From Myxococcota bacterium (lineage in GTDB: Bacteria > Myxococcota_A > Polyangia > Polyangiales > Sandaracinaceae), in the NCBI GenBank assembly GCA_036149055.1, contig JAYZQJ010000078.1, forward strand, positions 23,519-87,518: DNA of 64,000 nucleotides, written 5' to 3'. Positions 54,409 to 64,000 of this stretch are shown here, piece by piece (the stretch's first letter is position 1; each line of letters starts with the position of its first letter). Both the position numbers and the translations under genes were made by a program. The notes beneath the pieces were generated by a model. That model saw only the letters and a program-made list of their open reading frames with translations, ran no database searches and was not told the DNA's origin.

Positions 54409-54864
54409 TCAGCCCTCTTCGGCCGCGGGGTCGCCCGCGTCCATCTCGTCCATCGTGTCGTCCGCGTCGTCGCCGCCCTCACCCCCGGAGGTGGCGGGCT
54501 CCGCGCCGCCCGGGAGCTCGCCGCTCACGCCGCCGGTCGTCGTCATGTACGCGAGGATCGCCTCGAGGTCGTCGTTCGAGAGGCGGCTCTCGCGGATCGC
54601 CGGCATGCCGTCCTCACCCTCGCGGACCTGCTGGCGCATGCGCGCCGGGTCCCAGCCGAGGTTGTCGAGCGTGGGCGCGCCGCTCGCGTGGCAGGCCATG
54701 CAGATCTGGTTGTAGACCGTCTCGCCGCGCGCGATGTCGTTCGAGGCGATGGGCCCCGCGTAGTCCGCGCTCGTCTCGTGCGCCTCGTGCGCTCCTTCAC
54801 CGCCGCTCCCGCCGCACGCCCCGAGGGTGAGCGCGAGGGCCGACATCCAAGCCAATCGGGTCAT
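54409..54864 (-). CDS. Monoheme cytochrome c lipoprotein
   Basis: Strong RBS (GGAGGAGG) before ATG 54864; lipobox LGAC; CMACH heme motif; distal GMP Met; acidic tail. Confidence 0.88.
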   Translation of the reverse strand: MTRLAWMSALALTLGACGGSGGEGAHEAHETSADYAGPIASNDIARGETVYNQICMACHASGAPTLDNLGWDPARMRQQVREGEDGMPAIRESRLSNDDLEAILAYMTTTGGVSGELPGGAEPATSGGEGGDDADDTMDEMDAGDPAAEEG

Positions 54865-54940
54865 CTCTTCCTCCTCCAGGCCCCGTCCAGCGGGGCGGCG
54901 GCATGTCACCACGCAGAGAGGAACGGGGCAAGTCCGCGGG

Positions 54941-56182: not shown

Positions 56183-56395
56183 GCCGGGTTCAGACTAGGC
56201 CACGCATTCGTCATTCGCATCACTTTTCATACTGAACGGAATCCGTCAGACTGGCACCGTCCAGATGATGAACACGCAGCACCGTTCGTCTCCCCTCGGG
56301 ATCTCAGGCTCCAAGACCCCAGCGGCGTGCGTTTCTGGCACGGCTTGCGGCGCCGCGATCGCAGTCGCGGACGCACGACCTCCGGTCACGTCGCG

Positions 56396-56411
56396 TGGCG
56401 CGTCCCTTGCT
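56396..56411 (+). promoter_or_regulatory. Putative sigma54 (-24/-12) promoter
   Basis: TGGCGCG-TCCC-TTGCT matches TGGCACG-N4-TTGCW with correct GG/GC spacing and one mismatch. It lies just upstream of GTG 56424, and an enhancer-binding protein gene is adjacent. Confidence 0.55.
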
Positions 56412-56423
56412 CGATGGAGGCCC

Positions 56424-57962
56424 GTGCAGCGCCTCGGCTTCGTCCTCCTCGCCTCGCTCCTCACCGCTTGCTTCGGGGAGCCGCCCATCGAGAACGCCGA
56501 CCTCGGCATGAAGCAGTCGTCCCTGACGGCGGCGGAGCGGCGGGTCCGCGCGGCGCAGATCCGGGACGCGGCCTTCGCGAACGGCATCACGCAGGGCTGG
56601 CTGCTGGCGGGCATCGCCGACGCCGAGACCCGCATGAGCCACTGCTGGAGCGAGCTGACCTGGGCGTGTCAGGGCCCGAACAGCGCGGACTGCGGCGGCG
56701 GGCCGGTGGTGGCCGGCGCGGGCGACGGCCCCTGCTCGGCGCGCCAGGGCGGCCTCGGCATGTTCCAGTTCGACGCCGGCACCTTCGACGACACCCTGCG
56801 GCGCGAGGGCGACCGCATCCTCTCCATCGCGGGCAACGTCGCGGCCGCGGTCGACTTCGTCGTCAACATGGTCATCCGCTCGACCTACGTCTCCGGCGTC
56901 GACAACCGGACGCAGGCGATCGACTGGATCAACGGCGTGCGCATCGGCAACGGCCGCTGGGACGCCTGGGTCCGGACCGTGACCCACTACTACAACGGCT
57001 GCCGCCCGAGCTACTCGTGCTTCCCGTCGCGCTACGCGCACTACCGCGACAACACGACCGGCGTGTACTCGGAGATGGGCGCCGACTTCTGGGACCCGAC
57101 GCCGGACTTCGGCGCCGAGTACGTGAGCCAGAGCTTCCCCCTCGCCCGCGACCCCTTCGAGCTCTACCCCGGCCAGGAGCAGGCGGGCTACATCGAGCTG
57201 CGCAACGTGGGCTCCGAGACCTGGACGCCGGGGGCCACCCTGCTCGGCACCACCGGCCCGCGCGACGTCGAGAGCCCGATCGCCGGCAGCGACTGGGTGG
57301 CGCCCAACCGCGCGGCCACCGTCGACGCCCCGGTCGCCCCGGGCGAGGTCGGCCGCTTCTCCTTCTCGGTCCGCGGGCCCGACGCGCTCGGCGACTACCC
57401 CCAGTACTTCACCCTCGTCCAGGAGGGCGTGGCCTGGTTCAGCGACCAGGGCGGCCCGCCCGACGACCAGCTGCAGATCCGCGTGACCGTCGTCGCCTCG
57501 CCGCCGTGCGCGGACGCCGGCCCCGAGTGGGGCTGCGACGGCGCCGACCGGGTCCGCTGCCAGCACGGCGAGACGCTGCGCGAGGCCTGCCCGCACGGCT
57601 GCGTGCCGATGGGCGGCGGCGCGGTCTGCGCGGGCCCGCCGAGCGACACCGACCTGGACGGCGACGGCGCGCTGGCCGACGTCGACTGCGACGACGAGGA
57701 CCCCGGCGTCTACCCCGGCGCGACGGAGATCTGCGGCGACGGCCGCGACCAGGACTGCGACGGCAACGACGTGCTCTGCGGGGGCGGCGACGGCGGCACC
57801 TTCGTGTCGGTCGACGCCGGCCCCGGAGGCGGCGGCCTCACCGGCGGCTGCGTGGCGTCGGGCTCCCGCGCCCCGCGCGGCGGCCTCGCGCTCCTCCTGC
57901 TCGCCCTCGGCCTGCTGGCGATCAGGACTCGAGGTCCTTCACGCGAAGACCGAGCTGATTGA
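56424..57962 (+). CDS. Cell-surface protein: lysozyme-like N-terminal domain, NBR1-like Ig domain, Cys-rich/MopE-like repeat, MYXO-CTERM-like tail
   Basis: GGAGG then GTG 56424; lipobox LTAC; AGIADAET...GLGMFQF...YYNG; YVSQSFP..LRNVGSETW..VAPGEVGRFSF; DCDDEDPGVYPGATEICGDGRDQDCDG; GGC...LALLLLALGLLAIRTR. Confidence 0.75.
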   Translation: MQRLGFVLLASLLTACFGEPPIENADLGMKQSSLTAAERRVRAAQIRDAAFANGITQGWLLAGIADAETRMSHCWSELTWACQGPNSADCGGGPVVAGAGDGPCSARQGGLGMFQFDAGTFDDTLRREGDRILSIAGNVAAAVDFVVNMVIRSTYVSGVDNRTQAIDWINGVRIGNGRWDAWVRTVTHYYNGCRPSYSCFPSRYAHYRDNTTGVYSEMGADFWDPTPDFGAEYVSQSFPLARDPFELYPGQEQAGYIELRNVGSETWTPGATLLGTTGPRDVESPIAGSDWVAPNRAATVDAPVAPGEVGRFSFSVRGPDALGDYPQYFTLVQEGVAWFSDQGGPPDDQLQIRVTVVASPPCADAGPEWGCDGADRVRCQHGETLREACPHGCVPMGGGAVCAGPPSDTDLDGDGALADVDCDDEDPGVYPGATEICGDGRDQDCDGNDVLCGGGDGGTFVSVDAGPGGGGLTGGCVASGSRAPRGGLALLLLALGLLAIRTRGPSREDRAD

Positions 57963-59580
57963 AGCGGAGGCGGACCTTGCGGGCGGCGCCGGGGTCGTCG
58001 CCCTCGAGCAGCCGCGCCGCCATGCGCTCGAAGTCGCCGCCCGTCTCGCGGAAGAGCCGCACGAAGAGCTGACGCTCGAGATCCCGCGCGACGTCGCGGA
58101 GCTGGGCGCGCGGGCGGAAGCTGAAGCCGCCGGCTCGCTCGGGCTCGTCGTCGGTCGACGCACGCCACCCCGCGCCGAGCAGCTCCCGCACCAGCTTGGC
58201 GGGGATCGGGATGGTGTCGGGCGCGCCGGTCCGTCGCCCGCTCTGCGCCGCCTCGAGCGCGTCGGCGAGCGCGAAGACGATGGCGTTCGCCAGCAGCAGC
58301 TCCAGCTCCCGCACGTTGCCCGGCCAGTCGTGCGCGCGCAGCTCCCCGGCGCTGTGGCGCGAGAGGACGAAGCGCACCCCGCCGCCCGAGGGCGCCTCGC
58401 CGAACGACAGGCGCGCCTGCGGCGGCCCGTCGAGGTCGACCGCCTCCATGTAGTCGGCGAGCAGCGCCCGGTCGGGCCCGGCGGCGAGCTTCTTGCGCAC
58501 GAACGCCTCGGCGAGCTCCGGCAGGTCCCGGGCGCGCTCGCGGAGCGGCGGGAGGCGCACGCGGGCCGCCGGGTTGAGGCGGGCGTAGAGGTCGGCGCGG
58601 AAGCTCCCCTCGCGCACCTTGGCCTCGAGGTCGGCGTTGGTCGCCGCGATCACCTTCACGTCGACCGGCCGCGGCGCGCTCTCGCCGAGCCGGGTGATCC
58701 GCGCGTCCTGCAGCGCGAGCAGCAGCATGCGCTGCGCCTCGGGCGGGAGGTTTCCGATCTCGTCGAGGAAGAGCGTGCCGCCGTCCGCCTCCTCGAACCG
58801 CCCTCGCCGATCGACCGCGCCGCTGAACGCGCCCTTCGCGGTGCCGAAGAGCTCGGAGGCCATGAGCGTCTCCGGGAGCGCCGAGAGGTCGACGGCCACG
58901 AAGGGCCCCTCGCGCCGGGTCGCCGGGTGCACGACCCGCTCGGCGAGCGCGCTCTTGCCGGTGCCGGTCTCACCGAGCAGGAGCATCGGGAGCGAGGTCC
59001 GGGCCAGCACCGAGACGTCGCGCCGGACCCGGGCCATCTCCGGCGAGCTGCCCCACGCGTAGCCTCCCGCCTCCGGGGCCTCGCGCCGGCGGGCCAGCAC
59101 CCGCTCCACGAGCAGCCCGAGCGCGCGGGCGTCGAACGCGTCGGCGCCGGCGAGGGTGGCGAACTCGTCGACGTCGAGCGCCTCGGCCGCGTCCTCGTAG
59201 GCGAGCTCCTCGCGGCTCGTCATCAGGATCACCGGCAGCTCGCCGCGCGCCCGCCGGAGGTGCGCGAGGATCTCGATCCCCTGCAGCCGCTTGCGCGCCT
59301 TCTCGGGCACCCGCCTCGCGGGCAGCAGCCGCTCCTCCGGCACGTCGAAGGCGACGTCGAGCAGCACCACGTCGACGTCGGGGTTCTGCGCGAGCGCCTC
59401 GTCGGTCTCGGCCGCGTCGTGGGCGTGGGTCAGCGTGCAGCCCGGCCGCTGGGGACACTCCCAGCAGGGGCCCGGGAGATCGCAGCGGGTCGCGTAGTCG
59501 TAGTCGCGCAGGAGCGCGTGGGCGAGCTCCACGTAGCGCTCGCCGTCGTCCACCACGAGCAGCTTCGGCCGATCGCTCAC
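57922..59580 (-). CDS. Sigma54-dependent enhancer-binding protein (NtrC-like REC-AAA+) with Cys-rich insertion in the receiver
   Basis: GTG 59580. REC LLVVDD, VLLD, ILMTS; Walker A GETGTGKS; ELFG..KGAFSGA; Walker B FLDEIG; FRADLY; WPGNVREL. Confidence 0.9.
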   Translation of the reverse strand: MSDRPKLLVVDDGERYVELAHALLRDYDYATRCDLPGPCWECPQRPGCTLTHAHDAAETDEALAQNPDVDVVLLDVAFDVPEERLLPARRVPEKARKRLQGIEILAHLRRARGELPVILMTSREELAYEDAAEALDVDEFATLAGADAFDARALGLLVERVLARRREAPEAGGYAWGSSPEMARVRRDVSVLARTSLPMLLLGETGTGKSALAERVVHPATRREGPFVAVDLSALPETLMASELFGTAKGAFSGAVDRRGRFEEADGGTLFLDEIGNLPPEAQRMLLLALQDARITRLGESAPRPVDVKVIAATNADLEAKVREGSFRADLYARLNPAARVRLPPLRERARDLPELAEAFVRKKLAAGPDRALLADYMEAVDLDGPPQARLSFGEAPSGGGVRFVLSRHSAGELRAHDWPGNVRELELLLANAIVFALADALEAAQSGRRTGAPDTIPIPAKLVRELLGAGWRASTDDEPERAGGFSFRPRAQLRDVARDLERQLFVRLFRETGGDFERMAARLLEGDDPGAARKVRLRFNQLGLRVKDLES

Positions 59581-59918
59581 GCGCCCTCCCCCGCGAGCCC
59601 GCGCAGCAGCCGCTCCACCTCGAGCGCGCGGCGGCAGGCCTCGACGCACGCCGCCGGATCGGCCTCGCGCACGGCCCCCTCGAGGGCGTCGATCGCCGCG
59701 AGGTGCGCCCGGGCCTCGTCGAGCGCGTCGCTCGCGGGCAGCGCGGCGGCGAGCGCCTCGAAGCGCGCGCTCGGGCGCCCTCCCCCCGGCGCCTCGTAGA
59801 GATCCTTGGCGAGCAGCGGGGCGAGCGCCGACGGGAACGGGCCGCCCGCCGGGACGTTCCGGGCGATCCGCGCGATGTACTTGCCCACGTCGTGCGCGAG
59901 CGCGGCTCTGGCGCTCAA
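59577..59918 (-). CDS. Small alpha-helical protein with an H-box-like N-terminus (possible stand-alone phosphotransfer protein)
   Basis: TTG 59918, with 4-bp overlaps to both neighbours; ALAHDVGKYIARIARN; predicted all-helical by eye. Confidence 0.65.
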   Translation of the reverse strand: MSARAALAHDVGKYIARIARNVPAGGPFPSALAPLLAKDLYEAPGGGRPSARFEALAAALPASDALDEARAHLAAIDALEGAVREADPAACVEACRRALEVERLLRGLAGEGA

Positions 59919-60364
59919 ACCGGCTCCTCCGCCAGCCCCTCGAGGGTGCGCACGATCGCGGCGGCGTCGAAGGCGCGCACCGCGCCGACCCGGCCGTAGA
60001 GCTTGCGCAGGTTCGACAGGCGGCGCGGCGGGAAGTCGTGCACGAAGACGGCCGGCTGGTGATGGCCGGCCTCCCGCAGCGCGCCGAGGATCAACGTGCC
60101 CTGCTGCTCCTTGAGCCAGCGGGCCGCGCGCGCCTCGTCGCCGGCGAAGAGCTTGTCCGCCATGCCCTTCACGTCCCCGATCAGGTCCTCCTTGGGCGCG
60201 CGCTCGAACCGCAGATCGATGAGCATCGCCTCGGCGCCGTCCCGCATCAGGGCGAGCGCCTCGTCCGCCGAGTGGGCGGCGACGATCTCCCAGCGCTCGG
60301 CGAGGAAGAGCCGCGCGAACTCCTCGTACTCCCCACCGTCCTCGACCACCAAGAGCCGGCTCAT
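59915..60364 (-). CDS. Atypical single-domain receiver protein
   Basis: ATG 60364. LLVVED, AHSADEAL, MLIDLRF (acceptor Asp), then an insertion; the conserved Thr/Lys positions are not evident. Confidence 0.75.
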   Translation of the reverse strand: MSRLLVVEDGGEYEEFARLFLAERWEIVAAHSADEALALMRDGAEAMLIDLRFERAPKEDLIGDVKGMADKLFAGDEARAARWLKEQQGTLILGALREAGHHQPAVFVHDFPPRRLSNLRKLYGRVGAVRAFDAAAIVRTLEGLAEEPV

Positions 60365-60387: not shown

Positions 60388-61938
60388 TCAAGCCGCGAGC
60401 TCGTCCTCGGCGTAGGCGCGGAAGAAGCGGAGGGTGACGGACTTGGCGAAGCCCTGGCCGCCGTCCTCCACCAGGATCGCGCCGTCGTAGCGGGCGAGCG
60501 CCGCGGTCACCAGGCCCAGGCCGCGATCCATCTTGCGGGCGTAGAGATCCGTCGTGCTGAAGCGCTGCACGCTGGTGTCGCGGACGTGGACCCGCACCAC
60601 CTCCTCGCCGGTGATCTCCACCGCGGTCTCGACGTCGAGCCCGATCCGGCGAGGCGCCTCGTCCTGCCCCACCGCGAGGATCGCGTTGCGCACGACGTTC
60701 TTGAGGATGAGCACGAGGTCGACCCGGAAGACCTCGACCATCGGCGCGGGCGAGGGGCCGCGGATCACCACCTCGTCGAGGGTCACCTGCCCGGCCGCGT
60801 ACTCGCCGCGCACCTCGTCGACGACCTCGCGGAAGAGCGCGCCGTCGACCGGGGTGCGGACCAGGCGCGCGACGAGTCCCGAGAGGTGGCGGTCGAGGGC
60901 GCGGAGCTCGGCGTGCGCGGCCGCGAGCTTGGCCCCGGCGCGAGCGTCCCCGCGGCTGACGCCCTGCTCGAGGGCGGAGATGGTGTGGATCGCGCGGTCG
61001 GCGCGTCGAAAGGCGGGATCGCGGCGCGCGAGATCCAGCTCGGGGCCGAGGGCGCGCTCGAACGCCGCGAGGTGACCGCCCCAGGCCTCCGTCAGCGGCT
61101 CGCCGCCGTAGAGCCGGTTCTGCAGGAAGGCGCGCTGCCCCTCGGTGGCCCCGCCCCGCCGCAGCGCGTCGACCGCGTCGCCCACCGCCCCGATGCGGTG
61201 CTTGAGCAGCTCGTGGCGCAGGCTGCCCACGAGGTAGGTGATGGCGGGGTGCAGCTCGGGGCGGCGATCGGCGAGCACGTCGAGCGGCACGAGGGAGACC
61301 CGCACCCGCCAGAGGAGGCGCGCCACCGCGGCGATCGCGAGCACGAGCGCGGCGAGCGCCACCCAGAGGGGCCAGGTCGGTGTCTCCGCGCGGGGCACCG
61401 CGGCCTCCGCCTGCGCCTCCGCCGCCGGCAGCTCGAAGCGAGCGGTGCCCTCCGGGTCGAGCTCGAACAGCTCCGACAGCGCGGTCTCCGCGTCCGGGTG
61501 GCGCGGGTTCAGCAGGACGAACTTGCGGTAGTACTCGATGGCCCGGAACTTCAGCTGCTCGTTGTCGGGCTCCTCGCGATACCGGCTCCGGAAGGCCCGG
61601 GCGAGCGGCAGGTAGAGCGCCGGATCCATCGGGGCGATGCGCGCCGCGCGCTCGAACTGCTCCCACACGTCGGGCTCGCCGCCGCGGACGCTCTCGATGA
61701 ACGCCCGGTAGCGCGGCTGGGCCTCCCCGAGGAGCTGCCTCGCCTCTCGCCCCTCCGGCGACTCTGGCTCGATCGCGCGCCAGTCGGCCCACGCGTCGGG
61801 CTCTCGCTCGATGTGCCAGCGGGCGCGCGCCCGGGCCCAGCGCTCGGCGGCCGAGGCCTGCCCCTCCTCCGGCGGGCCCCCATGACAGCCGGTCAGGACC
61901 AGCAGGGCCAGCGCCCCCGTCCAGCTCAGAGCCTTCAC
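60388..61938 (-). CDS. Atypical sensor histidine kinase with lipoprotein-like N-terminus, TPR-like periplasmic domain and one internal TM
   Basis: GTG 61938 after GGAGA; LVLTGC; TPR-like (RAIEYYRKFVLLNP); TM WPLWVALAALVLAIAAVA; H-box SLRHELLK; N-box LKNVVRNA; degenerate G1 VRDTS; G2 RGLGL. Confidence 0.78.
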   Translation of the reverse strand: MKALSWTGALALLVLTGCHGGPPEEGQASAAERWARARARWHIEREPDAWADWRAIEPESPEGREARQLLGEAQPRYRAFIESVRGGEPDVWEQFERAARIAPMDPALYLPLARAFRSRYREEPDNEQLKFRAIEYYRKFVLLNPRHPDAETALSELFELDPEGTARFELPAAEAQAEAAVPRAETPTWPLWVALAALVLAIAAVARLLWRVRVSLVPLDVLADRRPELHPAITYLVGSLRHELLKHRIGAVGDAVDALRRGGATEGQRAFLQNRLYGGEPLTEAWGGHLAAFERALGPELDLARRDPAFRRADRAIHTISALEQGVSRGDARAGAKLAAAHAELRALDRHLSGLVARLVRTPVDGALFREVVDEVRGEYAAGQVTLDEVVIRGPSPAPMVEVFRVDLVLILKNVVRNAILAVGQDEAPRRIGLDVETAVEITGEEVVRVHVRDTSVQRFSTTDLYARKMDRGLGLVTAALARYDGAILVEDGGQGFAKSVTLRFFRAYAEDELAA

Positions 61939-62104
61939 GTTCTCTCCGACCCGCCGTTCGTCATTCGCTTGGGGGGCGAGGGTAGCAACCGACGCGATTG
62001 ACGGGGCGAGCACGGCGCGATTAGCCTGCTCCTCTCGTCGCACCCGAGAGCGTCGTACGGCGAGCGGCCGCAGCCACATGGGCGAGGGCCGAAAGGGGGG
62101 CTAG

Positions 62105-63910: not shown

Positions 63911-63924
63911 GACTCGGTCGAGGA

Positions 63925-64000
<76 letters not shown>

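Follow-up and report, generated by a model that had tools for sequence, protein, structure and literature searches.

Receiver domains are usually seen as pure phosphorylation switches. The closest described system is FixT of Caulobacter crescentus, published in 2020, a receiver whose four-Cys site, probably occupied by a [4Fe-4S] cluster, controls its own Lon-dependent turnover; its authors present it as the first Fe-S-binding receiver (PMC7078487). FixT is a stand-alone kinase inhibitor that was never seen phosphorylated, and its motif is restricted to Caulobacter. A redox-sensing [4Fe-4S] cluster in an N-terminal domain also controls a σ54-dependent AAA+ activator, OrpR of Desulfovibrio vulgaris, which has three cysteine residues in a PAS domain, no receiver, and a one-component architecture (PMC8359166). 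The spacing C-x5-C-x2-C-x5-C occurs in the N-terminal domain of Escherichia coli RseC, which acquires an O2-sensitive [4Fe-4S] cluster on reconstitution (PMC11729352).

The window (the whole 64,000-nucleotide stretch analyzed here, from a Myxococcota bacterium of the Sandaracinaceae) encodes a σ54-activator-type protein whose receiver contains an insert with this same cysteine spacing. A sequence-only reading of the window, which pointed to the insert, knew of no described receiver that contains it. The statement stands for the insert itself, but FixT is a published four-Cys Fe-S-binding receiver (PMC7078487). In the open-licence PMC and bioRxiv literature, no description of the insert or of the activator family was found.

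Results

A four-Cys insert splits strand β2 of an atypical receiver

The only cysteine residues of the 552-residue activator are C33, C39, C42, and C48, which lie within 16 residues in the arrangement C-x5-C-x2-C-x5-C (Table 1). The segment 59419–59484, in which the sequence-only reading had placed a Cys4 loop inside the receiver, translates to residues 33–54, exactly as claimed. The spacing given there (C-x5-C-x2-CP-x4-C) was also correct, but the proline after the third cysteine is not general (52% of 163 insert sequences). The loop had further been placed between helix 1 and strand 2; it does lie inside the receiver, but rather than preceding strand 2 it splits β2. In the AlphaFold models of the domain and of the full protein, the flanking residues 28–29 and 53 are in strand conformation, and residues 39–41 form a short helical turn. 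Both models show an ordered insert (pLDDT 85–88) that bulges from the middle of the edge strand β2.

The receiver-domain model (mean pLDDT 86.7) has the (β/α)5 CheY-like fold. Its best structural match was NtrX (Z 14.3, rmsd 2.3, 126 aligned residues; VIA-align), and NtrC1 was matched with Z 13.9. Fold searches with this model were filled by receiver domains, and the matches reflect the whole domain, not the fold of the insert itself. Queries of the ESM Atlas likewise matched the domain to generic receivers, and the insert to a single unnamed entry at 0.76. The neighboring stand-alone receiver has a similar N-terminus and lacks the insert, as the sequence-only reading had stated. Both receivers share a long β3-α3 insertion (residues 79–99 of the activator) with a conserved terminal (Q/E)G, which marks them as paralogues.

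Table 1. Features of the locus, with positions counted from the first letter of the window.
Feature	Position	Strand	Remarks
σ54-activator-type gene	57922..59580	-	552 aa; receiver, AAA+, and a family-specific helical C-terminal domain at the HTH position
Atypical receiver domain, aa 1-170	59071..59580	-	D11, D12, D75, T121 kept; β5 Lys absent; long β3-α3 insertion
20-residue insert, aa 30-49, in receiver β2	59434..59493	-	From alignment to insert-less relatives and AlphaFold; probably one metal or cluster site
Insert Cys codons	Cys33 59482-84; Cys39 59464-66; Cys42 59455-57; Cys48 59437-39	-	
113-aa His protein	59577..59918	-	Invariant H9, D10, K13; stop overlaps activator start
Stand-alone receiver	59915..60364	-	Paralogue of the activator receiver; without insert, without Lys
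Histidine-kinase-like protein	60388..62079	-	His box, N box, G box conserved in 72 aligned sequences

The four cysteine residues are conserved

Conservation of the cysteine residues in orthologues was the point on which the sequence-only reading had staked its proposal, and they are kept. When homologues were ranked on the C-terminus (residues 345–552 as the query; 120 matches listed, 11 of them without the N-terminal region), all four were present in 108 of the 109 scorable sequences, the remaining one having serine at the first position. Ranking on the N-terminal domain, which favors Cys carriers, yielded four cysteine residues in all 120 matches listed. GTDB loci were also retrieved by a C-terminal motif, and the best 80 of 196 confirmed loci comprised 41 with the Cys motif, 26 without it, and 13 unscorable ones. 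Finally, 146 receiver sequences were sorted by loop length alone: at least four cysteine residues were found in 76 of 78 long forms (the exceptions having 2 and 0), and 0 or 1 in 68 of 68 short-loop receivers.

The most diverse insert alignment (20 rows) left only T31, the four cysteine residues, and A53 invariant. The cysteine residues persist at about 35% identity; in a distant family (33–42% receiver identity) all four were present in 8/8 genomes, and His21, His52, and Pro38 were lost. Histidine at position 21 (28/33) and histidine or cysteine at position 52 (27/33) otherwise accompany the insert, and proline precedes the second cysteine in 32 of 33 sequences. Extra cysteine residues adjoin the motif in some clades. 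Besides 5-2-5, spacings of 5-2-6 (one subtype), up to 5-2-10, and once 4-2-4 (P0168) were observed, and a few members have lost cysteine residues (P0133, P0228, and P0248).

Spacing alone proves nothing, because the bare pattern occurs 53 times in the six-frame ORFs of this Cys-rich genome, many of the matches lying in Cys-rich repeats. What lifts the insert above chance is its conservation, both in the homologues ranked on the C-terminus and in the long β2 insertions. The four-Cys loop is a real, well-conserved feature grafted into a receiver fold. It is present in only 1 of 46 bEBP-like ORFs of the genome. The activator family is widespread in the genomes sampled: of 401 from the phylum, 98 have a match with an E-value of at most 1.5e-9 (106 when the limit is 0.001), and in its own family 25 of 32 genomes have one at E below 1e-40.

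The activator is the last gene of a four-gene cassette

On the minus strand, the genes for the kinase-like protein, the stand-alone receiver, the His protein, and the activator follow each other in this order, the last three being joined by stop-to-start overlaps of four bases. The AAA+ domain of the activator matched PF00158 (E 6.6e-56) in the Pfam profile search, the receiver match was weak, and scores against NCBIfam models were under every listed cut-off. Walker A and B motifs are invariant in the homologue alignment, and the full-length AlphaFold model has a mean pLDDT of 90.3. Instead of the usual GAFTGA, the σ54-contact loop reads GAFSGA (residues 250–255; window 58816–58833). This variant was found in 114 of the 120 close homologues listed, and GAYTGS or GAYTGA in most insert-less relatives. 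Judged from the loop, σ54 activation by this protein is putative. The loop type follows the tree and not the insert: the main Cys4 clades have GAFSGA or GAYSGA, and one Cys4 subtype has GAYTGA.

Named homologues of the activator come from Sandaracinaceae and other Myxococcota; Sandaracinus amylolyticus has an orthologue (P0030). Longer proteins (967–2760 aa) with the activator N-terminus were absent among 69 candidates, which is weak evidence. In a lone database protein (P0213), probably an assembly chimera, the N-terminal part of the Cys4 receiver is followed by a canonical receiver motif together with unrelated sequence. Downstream of the cassette, a convergent 565-aa ORF (window 56265–57962, plus strand) with an Ig-like (N_BRCA1_IG) domain and a putative metal-binding motif of the MopE type overlaps the 3′ end of the activator gene by 41 bases. 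The window ends in a run of six-base tandem repeats (about 63920–64000) that reads ET, RD, or RP depending on the frame.

A predicted His-Asp relay to a receiver without the β5 lysine

The acidic pocket is intact: D11, D12, and D75 were found in 76 of 76 non-redundant receivers and T121 in 72 of 76. None of the 76 had a lysine at positions 141–150, and the canonical lysine after β5 is thus absent. This residue is normally universal, and receivers without pocket residues are often unphosphorylated (PMC4125116). Because the lysine is missing, phosphorylation of the receiver is itself putative.

Complex prediction placed the His protein on helix 1 and the β5-α5 loop of the activator receiver, with His9 beside residue 77. 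The pair scored 0.88 versus 0.01 for the best control, and the mark on this scale is attained by 116 of the 157 solved pairs and by 2 of the 215 mismatched ones; contact agreement among the runs was at least 82% and partner pLDDT at least 91. The score may echo likeness to solved complexes of His donors and receivers. In one family, 8/8 genomes encode a fusion of the two proteins, with the His protein at the activator's N-terminus, in open frames of 737–849 aa (L174–L181, P0185, P0219, and P0228). Two 19-kb loci examined in this family (L115 and L116) contained no cassette kinase or receiver. Together, predicted docking and fusion count against a dead Asp pocket.

A lysine four residues after the histidine was present in 72 of 76 small His proteins and in 61 of the 72 kinase sequences compared, some of which come from unrelated kinases. 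In the complex model, K13 of the His protein touches receiver residues 148–149; the lysine may thus be supplied in trans by the His donor. Insert residues 30–49 were not among the confident docking contacts, although unnamed residues may still touch. On this evidence, weak as it is, gating of donor docking by the insert was dropped.

The insert is an accessory module and probably ancestral

For the AAA+ core tree, 112 rows were reduced to 77 (four long rows dropped, near-copies thinned) and rooted with six other bEBPs of the genome. The deepest-branching rows are Cys4 forms. All 31 rows without the insert group together in a single nested clade (95/90) whose sister is a Cys4 subtype (100/94), and the insert decayed separately in two members of another clade. 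The tree favors an ancestral insert with two or more losses. An AU test did not reject the opposite scenario, in which insert-less forms are basal and the insert was gained once, later (p 0.08). A single origin of the insert suffices under either scenario.

By profile search, the His protein was found near all 42 loci of the Cys4 type and near 22 of the 26 that have no insert; the cassette kinase was near 39 and 19, respectively. BLAST clustering had seemed to tie the small His protein to the insert (39 loci versus 0), a link discarded as a divergence artefact, the profile having found the protein in both groups. The insert is an accessory module to the relay, because a large sister clade, from which it is cleanly missing, keeps the same four-gene cassette. 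When loci L070–L122 and L031–L068 were compared, gene order in the main Cys4 clade was kinase, receiver, His protein, activator; in insert-less loci it was His protein, activator, kinase, receiver, with a much longer kinase frame.

Genomic surroundings

Genomes that retain the four cysteine residues have as many as four COX1-family matches, yet the residues are also present in 7/7 genomes (six of them at least 93% complete, one 87%) of a genus in which no COX1 match, and so no heme-copper oxidase, was found. This weakens the case for O2-specific sensing. Between sensing of redox state, NO, or Fe-S supply and a structural role, the COX1 pattern is neutral.

Across 80 related loci, no Fe-S or redox gene was a conserved neighbor of the family. 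Recurrent neighbors outside the cassette (a small cytochrome c, a Na+/H+ antiporter, an S9 peptidase, and a FIST protein) occurred at 7–14 of the 80 loci, none of them insert-less, consistent with synteny among relatives. In the window, a gene resembling that of a small monohaem cytochrome c lipoprotein lies 3 kb downstream (54409–54912, minus strand), and a cluster that includes a similar gene recurs at 14 of the 80 loci. A σ54 promoter scan of the window gave one match versus 2.15 expected, nothing above chance, and a scan of the 80 loci (run without a shuffle control) revealed no shared σ54 promoter position upstream of the cassette.

Discussion

Nature of the site

The four cysteine residues very probably bind a metal centre. 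Structural disulfides are unlikely in a cytoplasmic regulator. That the residues bind no metal, and form disulfides or are neutral, is very improbable: their spacing is common in the Cys-rich proteins of the genome, and a few members have lost some of them, but in this cytoplasmic protein exactly four stay near-invariant even where identity falls to about 35%. A mononuclear all-Cys site fits best, because the distant family retains the four cysteine residues and has lost His21, His52, and Pro38. A binuclear Cys4His2 site was dropped for the same loss of its candidate histidine residues.

The sequence-only reading had called the loop EndoIII-like. The EndoIII/MutY loop (PF10576) also has four cysteine residues ending in C-x2-C-x5-C, but assignment to that family did not hold up: the first spacer is x5 instead of x6 (5 in all insert members seen except P0168, with 4), proline directly precedes the second cysteine, and PF10576 matched none of the insert sequences scanned (0 of 30 and 0 of 14), whereas EndoIII and MutY of the same genome pass its cut-off. 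The reference for this comparison was 20 EndoIII/MutY motifs from relatives, which had been collected with the x6 pattern. The tail C-x2-C-x5-C binds [4Fe-4S] in Dna2/AddB (PMC3439918) and NUBP1 (PMC10108433) and also occurs in NuoG-type [4Fe-4S] sites; it is found in zinc sites too, namely the zinc knuckle of EBF1 (PMC3990105) and the site of DnaI (PMC1636449). When 30 and 14 insert sequences were scanned against Pfam, there were four matches in all, sub-threshold without exception and each with a single member: LRV_FeS (E 0.014), NADH-G_4Fe-4S_3 (E 0.036), the Fe-hydrogenase Fe-S domain (E 1.8), and a CCCH zinc-finger family (E 0.032). A single insert sequence had no match among PDB sequences. 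By analogy with the characterized sites, [4Fe-4S] is somewhat favored over zinc.

Role of the insert

The reading we prefer, tentatively and at a little under an even chance, is a [4Fe-4S] cluster with a regulatory role in the β2 loop of this Lys-less receiver, acting in parallel to the His-to-Asp75 relay. The grafted loop would bind one cluster, the state of which would tune the stability of the receiver or its hold on the AAA+ domain. This input would run alongside the predicted phosphorelay rather than gate donor docking, and would report redox state, NO, or Fe-S supply rather than O2 specifically. Its mode could be that of FixT (stability) or that of OrpR (control over the output of the AAA+ domain).

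A structural Zn(Cys)4 knuckle, which would stabilize the receiver edge or form a protein-binding surface and sense nothing, is a possible alternative, if on the unlikely side. Insert profiles had one match among PDB sequences, the Zn2Cys6 finger of fungal Cep3 (7k7g_M; E 0.037 and 0.083), whose second half resembles the insert in having C-x5-C with proline before the second cysteine, then C-x2-C. A Zn2Cys6 finger needs six cysteine residues and two zinc ions; the insert has four, and its candidate histidine residues are not conserved. A knuckle would also agree with the CCCH match, the near-invariant proline, the variable third spacer, retention of the insert whatever the COX1 content, and the lack of redox neighbors. 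All zinc-finger matches are, however, sub-threshold, the insert is not needed for folding, as the sister clade has both the fold and the relay in its absence, and most characterized C-x2-C-x5-C loops in the literature compared bind [4Fe-4S]. If the site were structural zinc, the finding would come down to a new zinc knuckle that marks one subfamily of myxobacterial regulators.

Four cysteine ligands and a tail like that of the staple motif would suit a structural, redox-inert [4Fe-4S] cluster like the "iron staple" of AddB/Dna2, and the occurrence of the insert in aerobes that have several oxidases, in which a labile cluster would not survive, points the same way. We consider this unlikely, given that a short loop at the surface of an edge strand is probably exposed to solvent and that the clusters of RseC and FixT decay in air (PMC11729352, PMC7078487). 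Here, too, the insert is dispensable in the sister clade, and this speaks against a structural cluster. The remaining candidate is a zinc-thiolate redox switch, in which oxidants would release zinc, disulfides would form, and the receiver would change. Hsp33 and RsrA follow a similar logic. The compact Cys4 site and the extra cysteine residues beside the motif in some clades would fit such a switch, and a metal-release switch is used by PexR, a bEBP of Myxococcus with a GAF domain (PMC12754779). Against it stand the absence of peroxide-defence genes among the conserved neighbors and the retention of the insert in the genus without a COX1 match, and it is quite unlikely.

Returning to the preferred regulatory [4Fe-4S] cluster, a bolder claim would be that these proteins constitute an undescribed ancient family of σ54 activators in which one receiver is both a phospho-acceptor, with lysine supplied in trans, and a grafted [4Fe-4S] sensor. 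This is doubtful as a whole. If true, phosphorylation and redox or Fe-S status would be detected in coincidence within one domain, and the insert-less orthologues would be built-in controls. Nature supplies insert-less, degenerate, and His-donor-fused versions of a receiver that is small (170 aa).

Comparison with known systems

Like NtrC-type (group 1) bEBPs such as NtrX and NtrC1, the activator combines a receiver, an AAA+ domain, and a C-terminal helical domain; it differs from them in the absent β5 lysine, two receiver insertions, and the GAFSGA loop. RseC, despite its identical spacing, is a membrane protein of the SoxR-reducing system in which the first cysteine is dispensable, whereas this residue is nearly invariant in the insert; the likeness between the two is one of spacing (PMC11729352). 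With FixT the activator shares a receiver with a four-Cys motif that is present in one lineage and absent from orthologues, and, as proposed here, a redox input to two-component signaling (PMC7078487). The comparison, made by motif spacing and architecture, also revealed differences: FixT has C53-x2-C56-x2-C59-x4-C64, that is, 2-2-4 versus 5-2-5 (PMC7078487), and the activator has a discrete 20-residue β2 insert, AAA+ output, a kept Asp pocket, and a distribution over several families. The insert and the activator family appear to be new; an Fe-S receiver and an Fe-S σ54 activator have precedents in FixT and OrpR, respectively. A cofactor loop in an activator receiver that keeps its Asp pocket would be a second way of placing a single domain under the control of two inputs. 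By analogy, the activator would work like FixT and OrpR combined, while being a member of neither group.
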